NCBI RefSeq assembly: GCF_000145295.1
Contig: NC_014408.1
Coordinates: 1,450,793-1,482,792, forward strand
Direction of reading: 5' to 3'
DNA: 32,000 nucleotides
Source: Methanothermobacter marburgensis str. Marburg
Lineage (GTDB): Archaea; Methanobacteriota; Methanobacteria; Methanobacteriales; Methanothermobacteraceae
Each line of letters starts with the position of its first letter. Within the stretch, counting starts at the first letter, position 1. Made by a program: the position numbers and the translations under genes. The notes beneath the pieces are model-generated. The model did no database searches, had not been told where the DNA came from, and worked only from the letters and a program-made list of their open reading frames with translations. This document shows positions 7,610-18,872 of the stretch, in pieces.

Positions 7610-8152
7610 ATGCTTACACGAATTGAAGCCATAGAAAGAATTGTGGGCGTCCTTGATGATGAAATCGTGGTATGCAACCTGGGTTTCCCATCAAGGGAGC
7701 TCTACAGTATCAAGGATTCGTCAAGACATTTCTACATGCTTGGATCCATGGGTATGGCCCCCTCCATTGGACTTGGCCTTGCCCTCTCACAGGATAGGAG
7801 GGTTGTGGTACTTGATGGTGATGGATCCATCCTCATGAACCTGGGGGGACTGGTAACAGCCGCTGCCCAGGCACCCAAAAACCTCGTCATAGTCCTCCTG
7901 GACAACAGGTGCTACGGAAGCACTGGTTCCCAGTGCACCTACTCAGATCTCATAGACCTGGGGGATGTTGCCGGGTCAATGGGATTCAATGTTATCAGAT
8001 TCCACGAGGAACCTGACTTTAAGCGTGTCCTCCAGGAGGATGGGCCAGTTTTTGCCCATGTGCCTGTAAAACCTGGTAACGCGGATGTCCCTGTCATAGA
8101 TTTAAGCCCTGAGGAGATAATTGAGAGGTTCATGGATGAGGTGAGATCCTAG
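7610..8152 (+). CDS. comE: Sulfopyruvate decarboxylase beta subunit (ThDP/Mg-binding PP domain)
   Basis: It carries the ThDP-binding GDG...N motif ([14 protein letters not shown]...VLLDN). I placed the start at ATG 7610 (MLTRIEAI), just after the comD stop. The ORF track starts at TTG 7586. Confidence 0.85.
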
Positions 8153-9918
8153 GACCTCCTCCCTGTGTATGTTGCGTAGAAACCATCTGTATCTGCATAA
8201 ACCGTATGGAAACCGAATTCCTCGGCTATTTTTATTGTCCTCTTTATGTAATCCCTTCCCCATGCGGTTATGGCCTCTGCACACTCCATTGAATACCACC
8301 TGAACCTTGAGTAACCGTAGACCCCGTACATGGTGTTTGCAAGCCTCTTGAGGGCCTCCTGCTGTACATTGAGTATCTTTCGCTCCATGGGGTCATCTGA
8401 GCGCTTCATCTCCCCCTTGATTCTGACCCTCTCAGAGAGTATCTCGCCTATAACCGAGGGTACAAAACCTGCTGGCTCCTTACGGAACCTGTAACCGTAT
8501 TCCGGTGCAACGTGGCAGTCACAATCTTTCTCATCGGTGAGTGTGTCCGGGGATATGTTCTTTGAGATTATTATGCTGGGGTATAGGCTGCGGAAGTCGA
8601 ACTGGACTATGTTCTCATGGAGGCCCCTCTCAGGTTCCTTAACATACCCTCCAACGGCCCTGCGACCCCTTCTCTTTGAGAACTCCGAGTGTGATGGTTT
8701 GTTTGGTACAAGTTCGCCGTACTGGTATGCCTTCCTTACAAGGAACCATTCGGCCTGCTGTCCGGTTGCCATGCGGGATATGTCAAAGAGGGGCTGGCCA
8801 ACTATACGGGTGAGCTCCATGTTGAGGGGGAGAATCTTCTCTGCGATCCGGTAGGTTGCAACGACGTCATCAAGGGAGTACCTGAAGAGTTCATCCCTCA
8901 GCTCCTCCCGGTCCCAGTACTCCCAGAGCTTATCGCCTGGAAGGTCCAGCTTCTCCTCCCCGAAGAGTTCCTGGTAGACCCTCTCAAGTGTGTAGCGGTC
9001 AAGGTTCATGTACCTCCTCATCACAGGGTAGAGGTCCACGTGCACCGTTCCCTTTATGGCTGTTGCGTTTGCAAATCCCCTCCTCATGGTCTTTATCCTT
9101 GAGCCATCCCATCCAAGGTCAAGTTCCACCCCAAGGATCTCGGCCCTCCTTGATAGGTAGGGGAAGTCGAAGTTGTCGGAGTTGTAGCCCACAAGGATGT
9201 CGGGTTTTTTCTCCCTGACGATTTCAGCGAACCTCTCAAGGATTGCCGCCTCATCCCCAACCCTTTCAACGAAGTCCAGGTGCTCACCCCTCGTTGATAT
9301 CACCGATTCAACGCCCATGTTACCGGCAATTCCAACCATCACTATCTCATCATTCTCAGGGTCAGGCATCCCATGGGGGTTTCTCACCTCAATGTCAAAG
9401 CTGAGGATGTCCAGCTGGGGGAAGCCAGAATCAGATGTTTGTATCCCGTCGGTTATCTCAATTATCCTCACATCATCTGATGTGATGGATGATGCCGACT
9501 CCGCCTCCACGCCATTGAATTCTATCCCTGCCATTGGAACGATTGACCTGTCAATGAGGTACCTCCGGTAGAAGGGGATGTCATGTTCCCTTATATCCGC
9601 AACGGATTCAAGGTTCCTTATCCTATCCCTTAACTTCGGAACCTCCTGGGGGTGCCTGAATTCTATCCTTATAACCTCCACCGGTTTTCCAAGGTCCCTT
9701 CGCTCTGTGACCTCAAGTTTTTCCAGTCCCAGTTCAGCGAGGTCATCCAGGCACCTCTCTGTATCGATGGGGATTGCATAGATGTATGGCCTGAATGAAC
9801 TGTCATATGCGATGATTGGCTCATTTCCTGACTTGTCCTTACCAAAGAGCCTGATGACGGGCATCTCATCGACCGTTAGGTAGTCGATGTCAAGGAGCAC
9901 CATGCTGTATCTTTCCAT
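8149..9918 (-). CDS. polB: Family B DNA polymerase, large (N-terminal exonuclease plus palm) piece of a split PolB
   Basis: Exo I is FDIEV, Exo II is [12 protein letters not shown] and Exo III is YSLDDV. Pol motif A is [10 protein letters not shown], motif B is [12 protein letters not shown] and motif C is YADTDG. The ORF stops 10 codons after motif C, so the thumb region is missing. This matches the known split PolB of Methanothermobacter. Confidence 0.92.
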
Positions 9919-10629
9919 GGAGTTTACTCTGTTGTGTGGGACTAATAAAATGTTCTAGGAATGAAGGGGTTATCCGTTTAACTGGCTTGCCAGACCAGTA
10001 TGCCATAGTATCAAAAGATATTAAAAAATGTGAACACAGAGCAGTTGACTTGTAAAAACACCTGCAAAATCTCGACTTGAACAACTTCTAAAACAAAACG
10101 GAACAAGAAAAAAATCAGATAAAAACTATAGATCCCTTTCATGTCAAAATGTAATAAGACACCATTGAGTTAGAGTTTCTGTGAACAGACAATACATCCC
10201 ATTACAAATCGATAAAGATGTTAAGCCCGTGAAGAATTACAGTAAAGAACGTGAAAAATTACGTGATGTAAGCATTATCGCTTCCTCCTTTGGCAATAAA
10301 CCATACGCTCCTGGTGGAGTGTAAGTACCGCAGATACAGACTCAAACAAAGACGTTATGTGATGAAATGCCAATTTATCACTGGGAAAATCATTCCAATG
10401 CCAATTTAAAGAAACACTCAATGCAATCTCATTTGCATTACAAAGAAAGAGATATTAACACTTCATGCATGCTTTGCATGGATTTTTTGTAAGTTTTTAA
10501 TGAAAATCATGAACATGGGATGTTAGAGATCTAAGAGAAAATGTAAGTGACGAAGATCTTATCTAATAAATTTTAATATTAAATTTGTGTTATATAATGG
10601 GATTTATGTTTTTCGGTCCTCAATTGGAT

Positions 10630-10660
10630 AATAATATTTTTATATGATTTTATAATCAAC
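10630..10660 (+). promoter_or_regulatory. Candidate BRE/TATA promoter for the island's first gene
   Basis: AATAATATTTTTATATGATTTTATAATC lies about 40 nt upstream of ATG 10685, with the SD GGAGGTG at 10672-10678 in between. This is sequence resemblance to the archaeal TATA consensus only. Confidence 0.35.
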
Positions 10661-10684
10661 TTTATTTTGCTGGAGGTGTTTTTT

Positions 10685-13204
10685 ATGAGAAAGTTTCTGT
10701 TCTTTATGATGGCTGTCTTGTGTTTCTATCTTATAGGTAATTCTTTCGCTCTAAGTTTATCATATGATGAGGTTTGTGACGCCTCTAAGATGATAGGAAA
10801 CTATACAGCATCACAGAACCGTATACCATCAATGGTTGTGGTTAATGGGAAGAATATAACATCAGACAATTATTTGTATGCGGCGTCCTCCACTGTCCTG
10901 AACCTTAATCAGGGCAAAAGGACCGGCATATCATTACCTGATTATAATCCTCCTACTAATCCGAGTGGGGCGGCAACAGGAACACTCTACAAGACATACA
11001 CAACAGGGACAGGATACCTCCAAGCAGCCCAGAACATCAAAAACTTCATGGAATCCAATGGCAGGTCGCCGAACTATGCCAACACAGCCATTGGACAAGT
11101 GCGCTACGAAAGCCTGATCTACGCCTATGCAAGGATAATAAACTTCTACAACAGCACAGGCAAACTACCAGACCACATTACAATACAACAAATAACAAAA
11201 AAAGAAGGAACCATCACAAGGCCACGGGCCGACTACACCTACAAAATCGAAGGTTACACCACCTATTTCATGGATAAGAGCACAGGTTCCATCCAATCAT
11301 GGCAATGGGACCTTGGAGACAACACAACAAGCACTGAAAGGAACCCAACACACACCTACAAAGCAGGAACATACACCGTAACCTTAACCGTCCGGGGTTA
11401 TGGTGTCACATCCACTAGGACGATGATGTTGGAGGTTATGCTTGCGACAATTCATGTTAATTCAACAGCAGTAACGTTTTTGGGACAAACTTTAAACTTA
11501 ACCTTTAAAATGCCTCTTAACAATACAGCCAAATGGATTAGTATAGGGGCTATGGCTACAGGCCCATTCAATGAGACAGTATTCCTTGTGGAGGATGGTG
11601 TAGCATATAAACTGGCAGAGCTAACCAACCCATTCTATCAGGTGAACAGGCAAAGTCAAAGGGAAATTGTCTGGACCGCCACCGCAGGACTGAACAGACT
11701 CATAGAAATCTGCACAAAACTCGGACTCGACGAACTCGAAACAATAAATGAATACCTCAACAACTTCAACCTAACAGAACAAGAAAAGAACTTCATCCTA
11801 ACAAACCATGGAAGATGCATAGACATCCTCCAAGTCAGCATAGAATATCCTGGCGAAGAAAGTGTCACAATAGCCAACATAACATTCCCAGGGAACCGAT
11901 CAACAAGGACGCTCCTACTACTCTACACAAACGGCTACTACATACACCCGCCAGGAGAAACCGGGCCCAACATAATAATAAATGACACCCTAACCTGGGA
12001 AGCCAGCAACTATGACGCCATTATAACCTACACCATAGCCACCAAAAAAATAACAAACCAGACACTACAATACTGGCTAAACAAAGAATACCCTCCAGGA
12101 CCATTAAAAGCAGCCTACGGACTATTCCTCGCAGGCCTCGAAACAATATACCTCCACGACACAATCGCAGACCAGGCAGCCGCAAAATACAACATAACAT
12201 GGACAAGAACCAGGCCAGCGATGGTCTCAGCAGGAGACCACAGCCCAGCGACATGGATAAGCCTGGAATGCAACCACAACATGGGAGTGAAAGCCAACGG
12301 AACAACACAAAACCTGAAAGCATTCAACTACGCAAGGACATCCACCATAAACCCAATAGAATACTATGTTATGGAAGCCTTATTCCCAGGATCAGACCCC
12401 ACAACCGCCCCAATAACAGGAATAGGCCAGAAACTACTCAATGGAGAGCCACTAGACATCCTCGAAACCGAAAATTATACGCTAATCACTGACAACCAAG
12501 GAAGATACATCATAATAGACCATAAAACAGGAATGGTCAGAGACATAATCTACAATCTTATGGGAGCATACTGCTACTACCACCAACAAACAGAATGGGC
12601 CCAAGAACTTGGCCGAACCATAATGTCCTCTGAAAGGTTAAAGTCACTCTTGGATGGTAATGGCACAGTAAATCTTGAAGGTTTAAGGGATAGTGTGGGA
12701 AAAGCCTTCATGGGTCTTATAGTTTCAATGCGACTCGCCCTACATAACCCCATGACCTTTGTTGAAATCATCAGTTATGGCTTGGTGGGTCAGGGCCTCA
12801 TAGGAGTTAACATAGCAGCATACGCAACAACAATAGCCTACATAAACTCCAAACTCAACAACATTACAGGCAGCATCAAAGAATTTATCGTGGAACATCA
12901 AACATACATTTCAAATGATTTTGTTGAATATATGCTTCCAGCAGTAATATATGTATTATCGAAATCTGGTGGTGGGGTAATACTTCAGCCAGTTGGTTTG
13001 TGTATGGCTATAGGCAATGGGATACTCGATTTTAGGGATCATTATCTCCCAGAGGAATATTGGAAATATATTGCATATCATCGTACATGGGCTCATGGTT
13101 ATGAGCTTAGGGCTTATGTTGGTGAGGATCATTGTATACACTATATTGAAATACCGAAGGACCCTGATGGTACTCTACGGTGGGATGAAGCAGTATATAT
13201 TTAA
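10685..13204 (+). CDS. Large secreted cell-envelope protein: signal peptide, PMBR-like repeats, PKD domain, N-glycosylation-sequon-rich unknown core, and a hydrophobic modular C-terminus (CT-A)
   Basis: Start ATG 10685 sits behind a strong SD. The signal peptide is MRKFLFFMMAVLCFYLIGNSFA. Three PMBR-like motifs are present (QNRIPSMVVVNG, NGRSPNYANT, TGKLPDHITI, with YLYAASS / LIYAYARI helices; nt ~10772-11191). The PKD signature WQWDLGDNTTSTERNPTHTYKAGTYTVTLTV is at nt ~11222-11416. Many N-x-S/T sequons occur. The C-terminal ~214 aa follow MGAYCYYHQQTE (ATG at 12560) and contain several hydrophobic helices. Confidence 0.85.
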   Translation: MRKFLFFMMAVLCFYLIGNSFALSLSYDEVCDASKMIGNYTASQNRIPSMVVVNGKNITSDNYLYAASSTVLNLNQGKRTGISLPDYNPPTNPSGAATGTLYKTYTTGTGYLQAAQNIKNFMESNGRSPNYANTAIGQVRYESLIYAYARIINFYNSTGKLPDHITIQQITKKEGTITRPRADYTYKIEGYTTYFMDKSTGSIQSWQWDLGDNTTSTERNPTHTYKAGTYTVTLTVRGYGVTSTRTMMLEVMLATIHVNSTAVTFLGQTLNLTFKMPLNNTAKWISIGAMATGPFNETVFLVEDGVAYKLAELTNPFYQVNRQSQREIVWTATAGLNRLIEICTKLGLDELETINEYLNNFNLTEQEKNFILTNHGRCIDILQVSIEYPGEESVTIANITFPGNRSTRTLLLLYTNGYYIHPPGETGPNIIINDTLTWEASNYDAIITYTIATKKITNQTLQYWLNKEYPPGPLKAAYGLFLAGLETIYLHDTIADQAAAKYNITWTRTRPAMVSAGDHSPATWISLECNHNMGVKANGTTQNLKAFNYARTSTINPIEYYVMEALFPGSDPTTAPITGIGQKLLNGEPLDILETENYTLITDNQGRYIIIDHKTGMVRDIIYNLMGAYCYYHQQTEWAQELGRTIMSSERLKSLLDGNGTVNLEGLRDSVGKAFMGLIVSMRLALHNPMTFVEIISYGLVGQGLIGVNIAAYATTIAYINSKLNNITGSIKEFIVEHQTYISNDFVEYMLPAVIYVLSKSGGGVILQPVGLCMAIGNGILDFRDHYLPEEYWKYIAYHRTWAHGYELRAYVGEDHCIHYIEIPKDPDGTLRWDEAVYI

Positions 13205-13335
13205 GGTGGTGGTTTGTTTGGATTGATAAGCTTTATGTGCTGATTATCTAGGTGTTGGTTTCAGTGGCAGATCTACTAAGTTGTGTTTGGTTTTGGCTTT
13301 GAGGTGATTTGTGGTGGGGTGATTGGAGAAAAAGG

Positions 13336-13725
13336 ATGGGTGGTTCTATGTTAGGTTTAAGAATAATCATAGGCTGTATACTTTTTATGTTAGTATTTAT
13401 AGGTTGTATATTACTGATATTAGGAGGTTTAGGAGAACGGGAAAAGAGGTTGGATTTTCTCTTATATGGGGTTATAGGTGGTGTGTTGCTTGCCATTGGA
13501 TCTTTTTTCCTTGGGGGGGATGTGGGGGCTTTCACATTCCTCATAATCTCTTTCATCTTCTTAAATAAGATAGGGAAACTTAAGATGGAATGGTTAGCCA
13601 AATCCTCCATAATACTAGCATACATCTTTGCTTTAACAATGATAATCTTAGACAGAATATTAATAGGTATTTTTGCTCTGATAGTGGCAACCCTTTTAAT
13701 CAAAGAATCCAAGACTTCAGTATGA
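13336..13725 (+). CDS. Small membrane protein of about 4 TM helices (candidate partner or immunity protein of CT-A)
   Basis: MGGSMLGLRIIIGCILFMLVFIGCILLILGG...; four hydrophobic stretches; GGAG lies 7 nt upstream of ATG 13336. It is co-oriented with and directly downstream of the large gene. The overlapping minus-strand ORF 13248-13739 is low-complexity (P/K/N/S-rich) and is treated as a shadow. Confidence 0.6.
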   Translation: MGGSMLGLRIIIGCILFMLVFIGCILLILGGLGEREKRLDFLLYGVIGGVLLAIGSFFLGGDVGAFTFLIISFIFLNKIGKLKMEWLAKSSIILAYIFALTMIILDRILIGIFALIVATLLIKESKTSV

Positions 13726-13732
13726 GGATCCC

Positions 13733-13805
13733 ATTGCATACAACATGGAATGCCGAAGAACCCTGATGGTACTCTACGGTGGGGATGAAGCAGTATATTG
13801 TTAGT
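13733..13805 (+). repeat. Short degenerate duplicate of the last ~75 nt of the large gene (3'-end handle, copy 2)
   Basis: CATTGCATACAACATGGAATGCCGAAGAACCCTGATGGTACTCTACGGTGGGGATGAAGCAGTATAT aligns with 13130-13204. It carries one extra G, which causes a frameshift, plus substitutions. Confidence 0.75.
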
Positions 13806-13819
13806 GAGGAGGGTCTTTT

Positions 13820-14056
13820 TTGGATTATGAATCTTTGTTTGGGAAGGTTTATTTTCTTATTTGTGTTGATATTATTTTATATTTTGTTGGGATTAGGCAT
13901 TTTAATGGTTTGGTTCCAATAGCGGCCCTTTTAGCCGTGTTTATTTATTTCCTTTTATTCTGGTTGCACTTCTTCGTGGATGAGTTGAAGGGAAAAAAAG
14001 AAGAAATAAGATGGATGATGGCCATAATCCTTGCATTAATTATATTCGGAACATAA
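13820..14056 (+). CDS. Small membrane protein of about 3 TM helices
   Basis: 78 aa with a TTG start 6 nt after GAGGAGGG (13806-13813). Hydrophobic segments include FLICVDIILYFVG, LVPIAALLAVFIYFLLFWL and MMAIILALIIF. A degenerate copy of its SD and start, with a stop at codon 3, also follows the large gene's stop at ~13205-13235. Confidence 0.5.
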   Translation: MDYESLFGKVYFLICVDIILYFVGIRHFNGLVPIAALLAVFIYFLLFWLHFFVDELKGKKEEIRWMMAIILALIIFGT

Positions 14057-14133
14057 AGAGGAGTTATCATGTTGCCAAGATGAAGGGGGATGTTAAGGTT
14101 TTTTCATTTAATAGACCATAAAACAGGAATATT

Positions 14134-14754
14134 ATGGGAGCATACTACCACCAACAAACAGAACTAGCCAAAAAACTTGGGAATGAAATTTTGAATTGGA
14201 GTGGTTGGTGGAAATTTATTGGTGTTGCTGGTGTTTCAACAGCCGAGGCTGCTGTGCTTGAACTGGGTGTGCTTTCAGCCCCAGAAACCCTTGGTTTGAG
14301 TTTGGCTGTTACCCTGGCCGCATATATTATCATGGAGCATCCTGAATGGCTACCATACATCAAAGACGCCGCAATAATGACACTACTAACACCAGGTGGC
14401 ATACCTCTTGCTATGGCGTATGCATGGTTGAGTAAGGATGCTACATACTTTGAATTACTTTTAAAGAAGATAACGGATCCTAATGAAGTCTTGGATAATG
14501 TGATAAAAGAGCTTCAGAATAGTTTAGATCCAAATAGTTTAATAGGACCCGATGGGAAAAGAGGAGATATTCTCGGGTTTTTCCGTGATAGATATGTGAG
14601 GTTCTATAACTCTCTTAAGAGGGGAGATATTGTGGATGTTGTGAAATATGGTATTGAGCTTATTGCTGGAGGAATAACGGTTGGTTCGTGGGTGGTGAGT
14701 GGCTTTAAGGAATTTGTGAAGGCCGTTCTTGAAAAAGAAACTGGAGGAGATTAA
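14134..14754 (+). CDS. Orphan alternative C-terminal module (CT-B) preceded by a copy of the large gene's junction motif
   Basis: It begins MGAYYHQQTELAKKLG, homologous to MGAYCYYHQQTEWAQELG of the large gene. The 22 nt TAATAGACCATAAAACAGGAAT at 14109-14130 equal 12513-12534. Homology stops after ...CTTGG and the remaining ~190 aa are unrelated: hydrophobic segments followed by a helical soluble part. Confidence 0.65.
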   Translation: MGAYYHQQTELAKKLGNEILNWSGWWKFIGVAGVSTAEAAVLELGVLSAPETLGLSLAVTLAAYIIMEHPEWLPYIKDAAIMTLLTPGGIPLAMAYAWLSKDATYFELLLKKITDPNEVLDNVIKELQNSLDPNSLIGPDGKRGDILGFFRDRYVRFYNSLKRGDIVDVVKYGIELIAGGITVGSWVVSGFKEFVKAVLEKETGGD

Positions 14755-15379
14755 ATTGGATTTAAATGCAGTCATATTATTTATATTTCTATTAAGTGTA
14801 GTCTTCATTTTCATAGAATATTCTCTAGGAAAAATCGCGTTGGGATTAATTGAAAAAGAAGAGTATGAAAAAGCCATAAATGTCTATAGGCTCCTCATAT
14901 CAAAAACTGAGAAAGATTTATTCAACATAGGATTCTGTTTCACCCAAAACAAAGAATACCAAAAAGCTTTAAAATATTATGACAAGGCATTAAAAATAAA
15001 TCCGGAATATGCAGAAGCATGGAACAACAAAGGAATAATACTAAAAGAACTTAAAAAATACAAAAAAGCCCTAAAATGCTACAACAAAGCCCTAGAAATA
15101 AACCCTGAACTTATAGAAGCATGGAACAACAAAGGAACAACCCTCCAGGAGCTGGGCAAATATGAAGAAGCACTAGAATGCTACAACAAAGCCCTAGAAA
15201 TAAACCCAAAAAGCATTGAAACATTAACTTACAAGGGAATAACATTATCCAAAATCGGCAAATACAAAAAAGCCCTAAAATGCTTCGACAAAGCACTCAA
15301 AATAAACCCAAAAAACAAACTATTACACAAAACCAAAGCAGCACTTCACAAAAAACTTAAAAACCAAGAAAAAGCCTGA
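14729..15379 (+). CDS. Membrane-anchored TPR repeat protein (TPR-1)
   Basis: It has an N-terminal TM helix (AVILFIFLLSVVFIFIEYSL) followed by about five 34-aa TPRs with the consensus AEAWNNKGxxLxELxKYxxALxCYxKALEINP. The start is uncertain: TTG 14729, or TTG 14756 behind GGAGGAG. It overlaps the end of CT-B. Confidence 0.85.
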   Translation: MKKKLEEIKLDLNAVILFIFLLSVVFIFIEYSLGKIALGLIEKEEYEKAINVYRLLISKTEKDLFNIGFCFTQNKEYQKALKYYDKALKINPEYAEAWNNKGIILKELKKYKKALKCYNKALEINPELIEAWNNKGTTLQELGKYEEALECYNKALEINPKSIETLTYKGITLSKIGKYKKALKCFDKALKINPKNKLLHKTKAALHKKLKNQEKA

Positions 15380-15403
15380 TGTTACAACCTCGAAAATGTC
15401 GCA

Positions 15404-15847
15404 ATGATGACCATACTACCAACACCAGGTGGTCTGCCAACATTCATCACCTACACATTACTAACAGGAGACACACAACCAATACAAAACTATCTTGAAA
15501 TACTATCAAGACAGTCAGACGGATGGACCCGTAGAATGGTAAATGAGTATAGAGAAGCCGTAGATACTCTAAGGGCGGTTAGCAGTGGTAGTGTTGGTGG
15601 CGATCCCGACGATATAGAAAGGGCTATAAATAATTTAGGTAAATTCATGAGGGATGAATGGAAGCTGTTCAAGGAGGCTTTAAAGGATGGGGATGTTGTG
15701 GAGGCCATAAAACATGGAAGCACTATAATAGGCACCGGGATGGGCGTTGCGGCCCTGTTAACATATGAGAATCGCGAGGCGATAGAGGCATGCATACTAG
15801 GATTCAAAAACTACCTAGAAAAGAAGTTGAGAGAGGCTGGAGCATGA
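15404..15847 (+). CDS. 5'-truncated paralogue of the CT-B module (CT-B')
   Basis: MMTILPTPGGLPTF matches IMTLLTPGGIPLAM of CT-B, LKDGDVVEAIKHGSTIIGTG matches LKRGDIVDVVKYGIELIAGG, and GFKNYLEKKL matches GFKEFVKAVL. The junction motif and first hydrophobic region are missing. The frame opens directly after the TPR-1 stop. Confidence 0.55.
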   Translation: MMTILPTPGGLPTFITYTLLTGDTQPIQNYLEILSRQSDGWTRRMVNEYREAVDTLRAVSSGSVGGDPDDIERAINNLGKFMRDEWKLFKEALKDGDVVEAIKHGSTIIGTGMGVAALLTYENREAIEACILGFKNYLEKKLREAGA

Positions 15848-17004
15848 ACCCCCTTAAGAAGATAAAGGATTGGATGGCCAGCGGAAAAGCTGGATGGCAC
15901 CTCAGCGGGGGCCGATCAAGCCTAAAACAGGGAAAATACAAAGAAGCTCTTAAAGAATTCAGGAAAGCCCTCAAGGCGAGTCCAAACGACCCGGAAATCT
16001 TGCACTATAATGCAATGACACTACTAAAACTCAAAAGACCAGAGAAAGCCTTAGAATGTTATGAAAAAATCCTCAAAAACAATCCAAAACTAGCAGAAGC
16101 ATGGAACAACAAAGGAGTAGTCCTTAAAGAACTTAAGAGATATGATGAGGCATTGGAATGCTATGAAAGGGCACTACAAATAGATCCAGAAGACGATGGA
16201 ACATGGAACAACAAAGGAGCGCTCCTTGACACAATCGGTAAACCTGAAAAAGCAATAGAATGTTATGAAAAAGCCTTAGAAATAAACCAAAAAAATGCAA
16301 AAGCATGGTATAATAAAGGTAACGGATTACGTAGTCTTGGAAAATATGAGGAGGCATTGGAATGCTATGAAAAAGCATTACAGATAAACGCAGAATTCGT
16401 AGAGGCATGGTACAACAAAGCACTAATTCTTGAAGAACTTAAGAGATATGATGAGGCATTGGAATGCTATGAAAGGGCACTACAAATAGATCCAGAAGAC
16501 GATGGAACATGGAACAACAAAGGAGCGCTCCTTGACACAATCGGTAAACCTGAAAAAGCAATAGAATGTTATGAAAAAGCCTTAGAAATAAACCAAAAAA
16601 ATGCAAAAGCATGGAACAACAAAGGAGTAGTCCTTGAAGAACTTAAGAGATATGATGAGGCATTGGAATGCTATGAAAAAGCCTTAGAAATAAACCTAGA
16701 AAACGACGAAACATGGGCTAACAAGGGAGTACTCCTCAGGAAACTTGGAAAATATGAGGAGGCACTGGAATGTTTTGAAAAAGCCCTTGAAATAAACCCA
16801 GAATTCGCAGATGCATGGAAATGGAAAGGAATAATCCTGGAAGACCTCAAAAAACCAGAGGAAGCCCTGAAATGCCACAAGCAAGCCCTCAAACTAAACC
16901 CCCCAAAACAAAACACTACAAAAACTTGGAAAACACCAAAAAAGTCCTACAAAAAAAGCCCTGAAAGAACTCCAAATGAAAGGCCAAAGTCACCCTTAGG
17001 GTAA
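15844..17004 (+). CDS. Soluble TPR repeat protein (TPR-2), about 10 TPRs
   Basis: ATG 15844 overlaps the CT-B' stop (ATGA). It has the same TPR consensus as TPR-1 and contains a recent internal 3-TPR duplication. Its last codons run into the CT-A' remnant. Confidence 0.88.
   Translation: MNPLKKIKDWMASGKAGWHLSGGRSSLKQGKYKEALKEFRKALKASPNDPEILHYNAMTLLKLKRPEKALECYEKILKNNPKLAEAWNNKGVVLKELKRYDEALECYERALQIDPEDDGTWNNKGALLDTIGKPEKAIECYEKALEINQKNAKAWYNKGNGLRSLGKYEEALECYEKALQINAEFVEAWYNKALILEELKRYDEALECYERALQIDPEDDGTWNNKGALLDTIGKPEKAIECYEKALEINQKNAKAWNNKGVVLEELKRYDEALECYEKALEINLENDETWANKGVLLRKLGKYEEALECFEKALEINPEFADAWKWKGIILEDLKKPEEALKCHKQALKLNPPKQNTTKTWKTPKKSYKKSPERTPNERPKSPLG
16127..16614 (+). repeat. 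Intragenic tandem duplication with a 306-bp period (3 TPR units)
   Basis: 16127-16308 is identical base for base to 16433-16614 (182 nt) in my manual comparison. A further partial unit at 16615-16680 matches 16105-16170 with few changes. Confidence 0.9.
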
Positions 17005-17505
17005 CAGCACCTTTGAAGGCTTAAAGAACAGCGCGAAAAAAGCTTTTATGAGTCTTATAGCTTCAATGCAACTCCCCCCACACAACCCCATAACCTTTAT
17101 ACTCGGTTATGGCTTGGTAGGCCACCAAGTTAAAATGGCAGCATATGCAACAACAATAGCCTACATAAACTCCAAACAGGCAGCATCAAAGAATTTATCG
17201 TGGAACATCAAACATACATTCCATGGGATGTTGTAGAAGGTATAATAACTATTGGTGGTGTTAAAGCTCTTGCTACTAGTGTGGAACTCAATCTAGGTTT
17301 TATAGGTGTAATTATAGGTGAAGGTGATTTGATTCTTAGGATAAGGGACCATTACCTACCTAGGGAATACTGGAAGTATCGTATCATCCAGGGTCATTCT
17401 ATGGTTATGAGGTTAGGGCTTATGTTGGTGAGGATCATTGTATACACTATATTGAAATACCGAAGAACCCTGATGTAGTTTGAGGTGGGATGATGCTCGA
17501 TACAT
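16976..17505 (+). pseudogene. Degenerate, frameshifted copy of the large gene's 3' end (CT-A' remnant, matching ~12630-13204)
   Basis: It aligns with the large gene from ERLKSLLDG (here ERPKSPLG*) to ...LRWDEAVYI (here LRWDDARYI). A 13-nt deletion lies at ~17176 and a net 4-nt deletion at ~17380-17400, with a premature TAG at 17476. Track ORFs 17048-17236 and 17200-17478 are fragments of it. Confidence 0.78.
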
Positions 17506-17864
17506 AGGCTTCTTTATTATATTGCGGTTATTTTGTCATCTTTCACGGTTCCAGTAACTTTGCTGGCCATTAGATCATATGCAGTGATGCAGGCACAGGT
17601 CAGATTATTGTTAGTGTTTCTTTTAATGATAAATTTTGTACTCCTATTATCTTAGGTCTAAGAGAGCGTTTAAATGAGAAGAAAAAGGGGCAATTGAAAC
17701 CCTCACGTTTATAATATTTTTACTACTTATAATTGTTCTTCCAGGTGCTCCTGCTTAACAAAACACGGGAGACATGTAAATGAATTATCATAACTAACAT
17801 GATGTGCAATTATCATGATGCTGTAATATTACGAAATAACCGGAATAAGCATGACACTTTATGT

Positions 17865-18872
17865 TCACTGGTTCTCCTCAGCAGCTGATTCTCCAAGCCG
17901 GTAGGCCTCAAGGGCCGCGTAGGCAAGCCCCAGGACCAGTGGCCCCACTATGAACCCGGCAACACCCCATACGACCGGGCCCCCAAGGAAACCCACAAGG
18001 AATATCATGGGGTGTATATCAGCATACTTACCTGAAAGCTTTGGCCGGAGGTATATGTCGATTGTGCTGAGGAATATCCCGAATATGAGGACCAGAACCC
18101 CCCTGAGGATATTCCCGGTCACCAAGTCATAGATGGCAAGGGGGGTGTAGGCAGCCCATGGACCTATAACCGGTATGAGCTGAAATATCCCGGTTATTAT
18201 ACCGAGGACTATGGCGTAGGGGTAGCCCAGGAGGTGAAAGCCGAGCCCCGCCATGATGCCTATGAGGAGCGCTGTGAGGAAGTGGCCATAGAATATGCTC
18301 ATGAGCACACGTTCTGTCTCAGAGGCCATCCTCCTCATGAAGGGCTTGGCTTCAGTGGGTATGATGCCCCTTATATATGAAAGGAGCCTTTCACCATCCC
18401 TTGCAAAGTAGAATGTTGATGAGAGGAATATGAAGAGCTGCAGGGCTATCATGGGGACTGACTGTATCACATCAATCACATAGTTGATGGATCCTCTCAG
18501 TATGTCGGTTAAAATACCCCTCAAAGCCCCCAGGGTGCCCCCGGAACTCTGGAGCTGTCCCGGAAGGTAGGGGATATCAAAGCCCCTTGCAAGGGTTATG
18601 AGTGAGGGGGTGGAGTTTATGAGGGAATCCACGGTAAAAACCACTATACCAATAAGGGGCATTATAACAACGATCATGGCGATGATTATTGAGACCGAGA
18701 GGTAGGGTATCCTCTCATTTATCCTTAAAGCCACCGGCCTTACAATGTAGGCGAACACAGCCCCCAGGAAGAGCATGGTCCAGATGGGATAGATTACAAT
18801 GGCCGATAGAAGTATCAGTGCAAGTACAAGGAATGAAGCAGATGTGATGGTGCCCCTGAGCCTCTCAATCAT
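17865..18872 (-). CDS. AI-2E family transporter (PerM/UPF0118-type permease)
   Basis: 335 aa, a polytopic membrane protein with the typical AI-2E layout of about 8 TM helices and a conserved G/P-rich C-terminal half. Confidence 0.82.
   Translation of the reverse strand: MIERLRGTITSASFLVLALILLSAIVIYPIWTMLFLGAVFAYIVRPVALRINERIPYLSVSIIIAMIVVIMPLIGIVVFTVDSLINSTPSLITLARGFDIPYLPGQLQSSGGTLGALRGILTDILRGSINYVIDVIQSVPMIALQLFIFLSSTFYFARDGERLLSYIRGIIPTEAKPFMRRMASETERVLMSIFYGHFLTALLIGIMAGLGFHLLGYPYAIVLGIITGIFQLIPVIGPWAAYTPLAIYDLVTGNILRGVLVLIFGIFLSTIDIYLRPKLSGKYADIHPMIFLVGFLGGPVVWGVAGFIVGPLVLGLAYAALEAYRLGESAAEENQ

Follow-up and report, generated by a model that had tools for sequence, protein, structure and literature searches.

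A candidate polymorphic membrane-toxin/immunity-type locus built on a pseudomurein-binding protein in Methanothermobacter marburgensis

Methanothermobacter marburgensis str. Marburg carries, within a 32,000-nucleotide stretch of its chromosome (NC_014408.1, positions 1,450,793 to 1,482,792; hereafter the window, numbered from its first letter), an island of genes built around a large secreted protein with pseudomurein-binding repeats (PMBR), here called the carrier. On balance we think it probable that this locus is an archaeal polymorphic, membrane-acting toxin/immunity-type system native to pseudomurein-walled methanogens. The carrier ends in a C-terminal tail (CT-A) that begins at a short conserved junction. 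In other strains the same carrier continues beyond this junction into different tails, and blocks made of a tail and the gene behind it have moved recently between lineages.

The initial annotation of the region had described six elements in order: a full-length secreted protein with a distinct C-terminus, two small multi-pass membrane-protein genes, an alternative C-terminal module carrying the same junction, a tetratricopeptide repeat (TPR) gene overlapping its end, a 5'-truncated paralogue of that module with a second TPR gene, and a frameshifted copy of the first tail. All six were recovered from open reading frames (ORFs) and from a comparison of the region with itself, at or near the places that annotation had given them, and the self-comparison supported each similarity it had named, far beyond chance. 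We refer to the membrane-protein genes as TM1 and TM2, to the alternative module and its truncated paralogue as CT-B and CT-B', and to the TPR genes as TPR216 and TPR404. The genes of the island all lie on the + strand (ORF list), as does every gene or gene part of the window given below for which no other strand is named.

Results

Tails are exchanged at a conserved junction

Homologues were gathered by a protein search with the carrier, the loci L001 and L021-L024 were compared, and the modules of the window were mapped onto them. The homologues do not share one invariant C-terminus. Identity breaks at the junction, and beyond it lie CT-A, diverged CT-A, CT-B or mixed CT-B/CT-B' tails. The homologue from strain EMTCatA1 (P0002, L021) is ~71% identical to the carrier in its N-terminal part and essentially identical in CT-A, and that from another M. 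marburgensis genome (P0003) has the same N-terminal and central parts with a diverged CT-A. CT-B is fused in frame after the junction in P0005 (L001) and P0006 (L024), and P0007 (L023) has a CT-B head and a CT-B' tail at the carrier C-terminus. CT-B and CT-B', which the initial annotation had read as displaced C-termini, are therefore not always stand-alone genes but true C-termini of these three large proteins.

Two N-terminal alleles, ~71% identical as protein and separated by a synonymous divergence (dS) of 0.83, each occur with CT-A and with CT-B: the window type with CT-A in the window and CT-B in L001, and the EMTCatA1 type with CT-A in L021 and CT-B in L024. The dS of TM1 and TM2 is 0-0.01, and that of CT-B between the window and L024 is 0.014. 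Values near zero in these blocks, against 0.83 in the N-termini, indicate that the blocks moved recently. A 100-nt profile of DNA identity between the window and L021 runs at 64-86% up to position 12601, at 100% to ~13700 and at 97-99% to ~14200. Compared with L001, the segments 10602-12612 and 14128-16704 are collinear at 94%, and the gap between them indicates an insertion in the window of 12613-14127 (CT-A, TM1, a remnant described below, and TM2) exactly at the junction, with CT-B displaced downstream. To judge from these alignments, this is the pattern left when blocks are exchanged by homologous recombination and one of the crossovers falls within the junction. Replacement of the tail by recombination, with orphan cassettes lying downstream, is one of the traits by which polymorphic toxin systems are recognized, and it is found here.

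Each tail type is paired with its own downstream gene

The combination of tail and downstream gene does not vary among the six Methanothermobacter loci: CT-A is followed by TM1, CT-B by TPR216 and CT-B' by TPR404, and variants of CT-A have behind them a gene for a TM2-like protein or another membrane protein of 80-95 aa. Across 25 Methanobacteriaceae loci, 26 of 27 cassettes are followed, at a distance of at most 400 nt, by a gene of one of two kinds, encoding either a TPR protein or a small polytopic membrane protein, and the type of downstream gene is consistent inside each tail cluster. The layout of cassette plus cognate gene that the initial annotation had proposed thus recurs in these 25 loci. 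The location of variability also matches the partner: it lies in the hydrophobic hairpin of CT-A, which goes with a membrane protein, and in the soluble tail of CT-B, which goes with a TPR protein. Partner genes outlast their tails, as TM2 is intact beside a ~100-nt tail remnant and TPR404 is intact beside the truncated CT-B'.

The family is widespread in Methanobacteriaceae and its tails are glycine-rich and hydrophobic

A scan of one genome per species with an alignment of the carrier's central domain (alignment A1) yielded 19 loci in Methanobacterium, Methanobrevibacter and other Methanobacteriaceae. All of them have the motif D.xTG[IVLM][VLM]RD and, 8-15 residues further on, G.YC[YF]..Q.T[ED]W; a search anchored on TGxVRD found the junction motif in 20 loci. 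At least nine loci have two or three copies of the junction on the same strand, the downstream copies being preceded by only 48-260 open codons, and the ordered layout recurs in 25 loci from at least three genera. Among 1.84 billion representative proteins, a profile search with E<=1e-3 as the limit assigned at least 286 to this Methanobacteriaceae family; 109 of them match at E<=1e-30. Many of these matches are 300-460 aa long and begin at the Met of a MKAAYG motif, as expected of orphan cassettes. When the tails of 86 representatives were grouped by sequence, at least 25 clusters resulted. The family accordingly presents a second recognized trait of polymorphic toxins, a secreted multidomain protein with a variable C-terminus after a sharp boundary. 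Domains assigned in a Pfam scan of 80 members were N-terminal and of adhesin type only (beta-helix/NosD, PMBR, PKD, Big, Fn3-associated and CHB_HEX_C).

Nearly all tails carry glycine-rich hydrophobic segments. The density of GxxxG is 1.28 per 100 aa in the tails versus 0.22 in the rest of the same proteins, the most hydrophobic segment of a tail is 14% glycine versus 4% in the downstream membrane proteins, and 78% of the 86 tails contain a 19-residue Kyte-Doolittle segment of 1.6 or more. For CT-A and CT-B of the window the hydropathy maxima are 1.53-1.59; TM1, TM2 and the helix of TPR216 reach 2.6-3.3. An (A/S)PETxG turn, flanked on either side by a glycine-rich hydrophobic helix, recurs in tail clusters with no other sequence relationship (CT-B, P0147, P0155 and P0136), which suggests that the tails may be distant variants of one hairpin design. 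At L023 14250-15729, a 181-aa orphan tail has no segment of 1.6 or more (one weak segment reaches 1.4) and is followed by two paralogous 4-5-pass membrane proteins; not every tail need be membrane-embedded.

The conserved end of CT-A appears to be a portable module. Its motif (RD.Y.P..YWKY…DHCIHY.E) also ends a secreted C39-peptidase-like protein encoded 5' of the carrier in L021 and L024, where it follows 'LSTEEMQNIRGK', a stretch resembling a double-glycine leader, and a CT-A-tail-like fragment is present in the Methanobacterium locus L011 as well. The C39-peptidase-like gene, which is frameshifted, belongs to a bacteriocin-like cluster outside the window, ~1-4 kb 5' of the carrier in strain EMTCatA1 (L021 6135-9078, L024 5150-8069). 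This cluster also encodes two small Gly/Trp-rich peptides with the same double-glycine-leader-like motif (LS.EEMQKIIGK), each followed by a small multi-pass membrane protein.

The carrier joins wall-binding repeats to a conserved central domain

The carrier gene (10685-13204) encodes 839 aa from ATG 10685, or 845 aa from an upstream TTG at 10667, and its product shares 99% identity with protein P0001 of Methanothermobacter sp. THM-2, annotated as a 'pseudomurein-binding repeat-containing protein'. A signal peptide, read from the sequence (10685-10750), is followed by three PMBR repeats at ~10754-11191 (Pfam PF09373, E=1e-21). Their score of 76.2 bits over three stretches, against a Pfam gathering cut-off of 24.9, places the carrier among the PMBR wall proteins. 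A single PKD domain comes next (11267-11428; Pfam, E=1e-12). The carrier and P0001 show a 5-aa difference at 10970-10990 (LYKTYTTGTGYL versus LYKSGYL), in the PMBR region (~aa 30-175).

The central domain (11429-12550, ~370 aa) has no Pfam family match. Together with the junction helix (11429-12631; alignment A1) it forms the family-defining unit, and we regard this unit as a candidate 'pre-toxin' domain. Its conserved motifs in alignment A1 are G(P/G)(L/M)KAAYG, IY(L/C)HD, VTW(T/S)RT and LEC(N/D)H.MG. An AlphaFold2 (AF2) model of the domain reached a pLDDT of 90.5 and a pTM of 0.90, and has a beta-rich module first, then mixed alpha/beta parts, and the junction helix last. A profile sequence search gave no match to it in the PDB, and Foldseek gave none in the PDB or BFVD.

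The junction (12527-12612) consists of TGMVRD, six further residues and GAYCYYHQQTEWAQELG, with the general form TGxVRD…GAYCYYHQQTEW, and is repeated as DNA at 14128-14180. In the self-comparison 12554-12612 matched this second copy at 80% (E=5e-9; peptide MGAY(CY)YHQQTE(W/L)A..LG). The Cys and Thr of the junction are nearly invariant family-wide. The repeat and the alignments suggest that the junction acts as a recombination handle and as the border between the conserved and the polymorphic parts; it is speculation that the near-invariant Cys and TGxVRD could also mark a processing site.

CT-A variants and their small membrane proteins

Alignment A2 and hydropathy divide CT-A (12563-13204; 213 aa) into three parts: the head is helical and conserved, the hairpin (12914-13027) is Gly-rich, hydrophobic and hypervariable, and the tail (13034-13201), again conserved, has the motif RDHYLPxEYWKY…DHCIHYIEIPKxPDG. 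The same arrangement holds for the CT-A family, in which a hydrophobic hairpin of ~40 aa, hypervariable in sequence, lies between conserved segments of head and tail. The initial annotation had recognized neither CT-A nor CT-B as a known toxin fold; sequence scans of both against Pfam, NCBIfam and the PDB were likewise empty. The AF2 model of CT-A, from an 11-sequence alignment, was of low confidence (pLDDT 47.7) and unfit for fold comparison.

TM1 (13309-13725) encodes a small polytopic membrane protein of 125-138 aa with four hydrophobic segments. It lies directly 3' of CT-A in both the window and L021, where the two copies are 99% identical and have a dS of 0.01, while the N-terminal regions of the same carriers stand at 0.83. 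Its cluster extends to M. thermautotrophicus Delta H, and public records name its members 'hypothetical protein'. By position and pairing, TM1 is a candidate cognate immunity protein or partner of CT-A. Antisense to TM1 there is an ORF of 163 aa (13248-13739, - strand) with a low-complexity, Pro/Ser/Lys/Asn-rich translation, which is most likely no gene.

Between TM1 and TM2 we found a remnant of ~100 nt (13723-13826) that was absent from the initial annotation. It corresponds to the 3' end of another CT-A copy, ~27 codons long, with the spacer that follows, and matches 13123-13224 at 79% (E=3e-18) and 17429-17496 at 76%. The remnant marks a deleted CT-A variant formerly ahead of TM2. TM2 itself (13820-14056) encodes a 78-aa membrane protein with two to three hydrophobic segments and is an intact candidate immunity gene that has lost its own tail; TM2-like genes lie 3' of CT-A variants in L021 (16231-16476) and L022 (12516-12722 and 15754-15999).

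A further CT-A-like orphan (16977-17496) is 5'-truncated and frameshifted, and can be translated in three frames. It matches 12631-13191 at 71% over 575 nt (E=8e-76, self-comparison), and has the conserved tail with a different hairpin. The initial annotation had taken it for an older copy of CT-A; since it has its own, different variable hairpin, it is instead a third CT-A subtype. The ORF on its 3' side (17494-17655) is a degenerate small membrane-protein ORF; alignment with L001 14503-14673 shows that a 2-nt deletion has removed the start that the 56-aa ORF of L001 still has. Another intact orphan CT-A, P0122 (215 aa), is recorded from str. Marburg, is of another subtype and is absent from the window. 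A second locus of the family is therefore probably present in this genome.

CT-B, CT-B' and their tetratricopeptide repeat partners

Orphan CT-B (14134-14754; 206 aa) begins at the junction with MGAY-YHQQTELAKKLG, and a vestige of 'IDHKTG' stands just 5' of it. A hydrophobic head with an APETLG turn (14272-14289) is followed by a soluble helical tail; within the CT-B family the head is conserved and the tail variable. CT-A and CT-B are unrelated in sequence, with glycine-rich hydrophobic helices as their common theme. The orphan is 95-97% identical to the true C-termini of P0005 (L001) and P0006 (L024), with a ratio of nonsynonymous to synonymous divergence (dN/dS) of 0.37-0.59 against these fused copies. 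TPR216 (14729-15379; Pfam TPR_1, E=1e-49), whose product has one N-terminal hydrophobic helix, overlaps the end of CT-B by 26 nt, lies 3' of CT-B in the window, L001 and L024, and has a dN/dS of 0.19-0.37. It is a candidate cognate partner of CT-B.

CT-B' (15404-15847, or from 15389) is a 5'-truncated orphan that lacks the junction and the hydrophobic head and has kept a variant soluble tail, 29% identical to residues 76-199 of CT-B over ~135 aa (E=3e-11). The full-length form is fused to the carrier in P0007 (L023); intact orphan copies of it are known from P0132, P0133, L021 and L022. The truncated copy has a dN/dS of 3.95, a noisy estimate from only 14 differences. TPR404, which begins at 15790 or 15844 and ends at 17004 (Pfam TPR), probably starts at ATG 15844, overlapping the CT-B' stop. 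Its product is soluble, with ~10 repeats, and the gene follows CT-B' in all six Methanothermobacter loci, which makes it a candidate cognate partner of CT-B'. A recent tandem duplication of 306 nt (three TPRs; 16042-16854, 90% matches) lies within it, and since homologous genes of other strains encode 353-455 aa, the number of repeats is variable. Neither the CT-B orphan nor the TPR genes have been disrupted, and purifying selection acts on them.

Genomic setting of the island

The GC content of ~9985-17826 is 0.34-0.45, compared with ~0.51 in the flanks, and this low-GC island was found in four distinct chromosomal contexts among the loci compared. Its left neighbor is a family-B DNA polymerase gene (PolB; 8149-9918, - strand) and its right neighbor an AI-2E-type permease gene (17865-18872, - strand). 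The left edge is an AT-rich non-coding leader 5' of the carrier gene (9985-10684, GC 0.33) with a TATA-like TTTATAAT at 10649 and a strong GGAGGTG ribosome-binding site ahead of ATG 10685; homology with the PolB flank of L023 stops at 9984. The right edge is likewise non-coding (17656-17826; GC profile), and homology with the AI-2E-permease flank of L023 begins at 17826.

In L023 (9552-15837), a metagenomic Methanothermobacter contig, the PolB/AI-2E-permease intergenic site likewise holds a related island, with its orientation reversed relative to the flanks. Terminal repeats that might account for the inversion relative to L023 were sought, and this search found no shared boundary sequence, only a weak 26-nt inverted pair (10404-10429 / 17602-17627, 77%). 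An empty PolB/AI-2E site was sought through exact-protein look-up, and the contigs reached in this way stop at the island. In L025 and L026, short-read assemblies with the AI-2E permease of the window, the contigs end ~100-150 nt past the permease on the island side. Repeated cassettes may thus break assemblies and lead to under-counting of the family in draft genomes.

An origin as phage or plasmid cargo was considered and rejected. The central domain plus CT-A had no match among PLSDB plasmids, INPHARED phages or IMG/VR contigs, and the window held no tRNA gene, no Rfam match and no integrase among its ORFs. Five proteins of the window have exact matches in M. marburgensis records, four of the five in str. 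Marburg or an ISG34-tagged genome (ADL59167, ADL59168 and ADL59171 in str. Marburg; WBF09680 and WBF09681 in the ISG34-tagged genome), under the names 'hypothetical protein' or 'tetratricopeptide repeat protein'.

Discussion

We propose that the large protein would be exported by Sec and held by its PMBR repeats on the pseudomurein wall of its own cell or of a neighbor. The central domain would end in a junction helix (…TGxVRD…GAYC..QTEW) bearing a polymorphic tail of 110-310 aa built on glycine-rich hydrophobic hairpins. This tail would be the active part: after display or release it may insert into the cytoplasmic membrane of a neighbor without the cognate protector and damage the barrier. 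Sister cells would be protected by the gene directly downstream of the tail. For CT-A-type tails the putative protector is a small polytopic membrane protein (TM1, TM2) that may recognize the hypervariable hairpin inside the membrane; for CT-B-type tails it is a TPR protein (TPR216, TPR404) that may bind the variable soluble tail. Homologous recombination, with one of its crossovers in the conserved junction, would bring in new blocks of tail and protector. The tail displaced in this way would remain as an orphan behind the new block and gradually decay, whereas its protector gene would be retained. The swapping of tails at the junction, their constant pairing with downstream genes, the variability placed to match the partner, and the size and diversity of the family favor this proposal, and the portable CT-A module in a bacteriocin-like cluster, the protector-like genes that outlive their tails and the low GC of the island are consistent with it.

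Several observations weigh against a toxin. Killing and protection by the tails and downstream genes are putative only, predicted from gene arrangement. For another trait of polymorphic toxins, a C-terminal toxin fold, CT-A, CT-B and the 80 members scanned gave no match, the Pfam scan of those 80 members containing no toxin family, and the model of CT-A (pLDDT 47.7) is of low confidence. Classical polymorphic toxin families mix many enzymatic activities; the tails of this family are uniformly hydrophobic, as a simple C-terminal membrane anchor would look, and on a Sec substrate they could be stop-transfer anchors in the producer. TPR404 has neither signal peptide nor hydrophobic segment and would therefore have to meet the tail in the cytoplasm. 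We identified no release protease and no delivery route through the wall of a neighbor.

Three other explanations were weighed. The tails might be exchangeable C-terminal anchors, which fix an adhesin-like wall protein in the membrane of its producer and on which the TPR or membrane partners assemble, so that cassettes would vary how a surface protein is anchored or connected. The share of tails with a segment at or above 1.6 on the Kyte-Doolittle scale (78% of 86) favors this explanation; with a Sec signal, hydrophobic C-terminal helices could serve as stop-transfer sequences, and a soluble TPR partner would suit a cytoplasmic tail. Methanobrevibacter adhesin-like proteins with a C-terminal transmembrane domain have likewise been read as membrane-anchored (PMC2812497). 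Anchoring leaves unexplained, however, the hyper-diversity of the tails (at least 25 clusters), the exchange of near-identical blocks between lineages at a dS of 0.83, the arrays of 5'-truncated orphans that each have their own partner gene, and the persistence of partner genes after loss of the anchor. Wall attachment would already be provided by the PMBR repeats, the hydrophobic segments of CT-A and CT-B in the window are weak (1.53-1.59 against 2.6-3.3 in TM1, TM2 and TPR216), and the carrier has no archaeosortase/PGF-CTERM-type or sortase signal (no NCBIfam match; PMBR and PKD only in Pfam). The initial annotation had treated exchangeable anchors or surface variation as an equal alternative; orphan arrays, block exchange and partner retention weaken that standing, and we now hold it to be an unlikely rival.

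Tail and partner might instead form an identity pair that signals 'same strain' on contact, as in non-lethal self/non-self (kin) recognition or strain-specific adhesion; IdsD/IdsE of Proteus is such a pair. Recognition of this kind accounts for the same polymorphism, junction recombination and strict linkage of tail and partner, and it suits both the variable regions in or beside membrane segments and the lack of a toxin domain among the 80 members scanned with Pfam. We nevertheless consider it rather improbable: intact partners beside deleted or truncated tails (TM2, TPR404) fit the collecting of immunity genes better, the CT-A tail module also occurs in a bacteriocin-like cluster with a C39 peptidase, and no signaling output was identified. 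Least of all do the data fit functionless debris, in which one surface-protein gene was duplicated locally and decayed with neighbors linked by chance. CT-B', the CT-A pseudogene, the ~100-nt remnant and ORF 17494-17655 are indeed truncated or frameshifted, but the same ordered layout in 25 loci of at least three genera, the intact orphan CT-B and TPR genes under purifying selection and the exchange of blocks between strains contradict this explanation, and we give it hardly any weight.

A toxin/immunity-type locus of this kind would resemble several bacterial systems in its working and, to judge from domains and motifs, belong to none of their families. Contact-dependent inhibition (CDI) loci, made up of CdiB, CdiA and CdiI, are known for arrays of orphan cdiA-CT/cdiI modules, and in E. 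coli EC93 the CdiA-CT is membrane-acting and CdiI is a membrane protein. Like these, the present locus encodes a large carrier, presumably exported, in which a conserved body passes sharply, at a conserved junction, into a polymorphic tail, and has a tail-specific small gene directly behind it; its displaced orphan pairs keep junction homology and exchange occurs by recombination at the junction, and a membrane-acting tail with a membrane-protein protector, both putative here, would parallel EC93. Unlike CDI loci, it has no FHA/haemagglutinin repeats (Pfam), no VENN (motif search) and no CdiB-like gene for two-partner secretion (ORFs of the island), so that the marks of CDI membership (CdiB, FHA repeats, VENN) are missing. 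Sec is the presumed export route and the PMBR repeats would bind the wall, the junction GAYC..QTEW ends a domain without known relatives, and the host is an archaeon without an outer membrane.

The Sec-exported, wall-associated WapA of the Gram-positive Bacillus subtilis, with its partner WapI, and the Rhs/YD-repeat toxins offer a similar topology in that they have a signal peptide, N-terminal wall-binding repeats, a conserved body, a polymorphic tail, a downstream cognate gene and orphan modules. The locus has neither YD/Rhs repeats (Pfam) nor PxxxxDPxGL (motif search) and falls outside that family; its tails are hydrophobic and glycine-rich and are no nucleases, and its wall module is the pseudomurein-specific PMBR. 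MafB/MafI of Neisseria, polymorphic toxins with promoterless alternative mafB-CT cassettes that each have their own immunity gene, are similar in having a Sec signal, a conserved N-terminal part, a variable tail, a gene directly downstream and alternative tail cassettes, and differ in junction and tails, in the DUF1020/MafB N-terminal domain (no Pfam match here) and in the host, which here is archaeal. In pore-forming colicins an integral-membrane immunity protein recognizes a hydrophobic hairpin, which matches the hypervariable CT-A hairpin with TM1/TM2. Receptor- or wall-binding part, middle domain and C-terminal helical hairpin, membrane-inserting in colicins, come in the same order, with a small polytopic membrane protein as putative protector. 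In contrast to colicins, the locus is chromosomal with orphan arrays and not plasmid-borne, some of its tails are paired with TPR proteins, and it has no match to the colicin pore-forming domain, a ten-helix bundle (Pfam, E<=0.1), that would place it among them; the CT-A model is too poor for a comparison of folds.

Within Archaea, the VARTIG module of Thermococcales comprises a large secreted protein and variable genes downstream of it; recombination between strains has made the C-terminal part of the protein hypervariable. The organization of the module has been likened to polymorphic toxin systems, and its function is unknown (PMC8416519). It shares with the present locus an archaeal host, a large secreted protein with a recombining hypervariable C-terminus and variable downstream genes. 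The VARTIG variable part is an immunoglobulin (Ig) domain, whereas here a glycine-rich hydrophobic tail follows a non-Ig central domain; the two have no common sequence family and belong to different archaeal orders. The N-terminal PMBR, PKD, Big and beta-helix/NosD domains of the family are also those of the adhesin-like proteins of Methanobacteriales (PMC2812497), of which M. marburgensis has 12 by one count (PMC3087415). Some of these proteins end in a transmembrane domain, but the published descriptions covered here treat the C-terminus as an anchor, the usual reading for such proteins, without a junction, tail cassettes or cognate genes. Zhang et al. (2012) found archaeal polymorphic toxin systems to be rare and mostly nested within bacterial versions, and mention neither methanogens nor pseudomurein (PMC3482391). 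The literature covered here, which did not include Makarova et al. 2019, contains no link of polymorphic toxins to such a Methanobacteriales locus, and an earlier in-silico listing is possible. We regard it as plausible, if not quite probable, that the locus represents a new Methanobacteriaceae-specific family of Sec-exported, wall-targeted membrane toxins, with a new pre-toxin domain ending in the GAYC..QTEW junction and two new immunity classes, in-membrane proteins reading a hypervariable hairpin and TPR proteins reading a variable soluble tail, and that it arose within Archaea and was not borrowed from Bacteria.

Antagonism between archaea is barely characterized, and archaeal polymorphic toxin systems have been predicted without experimental test (PMC8416519). 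The present family is abundant in pseudomurein-walled methanogens, has no detectable domain in common with bacterial systems except generic adhesin modules, and shows the full population-genetic signature of a conflict locus. Two classical laboratory strains carry genes of this kind: M. marburgensis Marburg has members, and M. thermautotrophicus Delta H, for which a genetic system exists, has relatives of them. If the tails are toxins, the locus would show how wall-enclosed archaea without secretion needles compete, and would account for some of the many 'adhesin-like proteins' encoded by rumen and gut methanogens. It would also add a new protein fold and new immunity families, and such methanogen-specific membrane-active proteins and wall-targeting modules may be of use in methanogen control.

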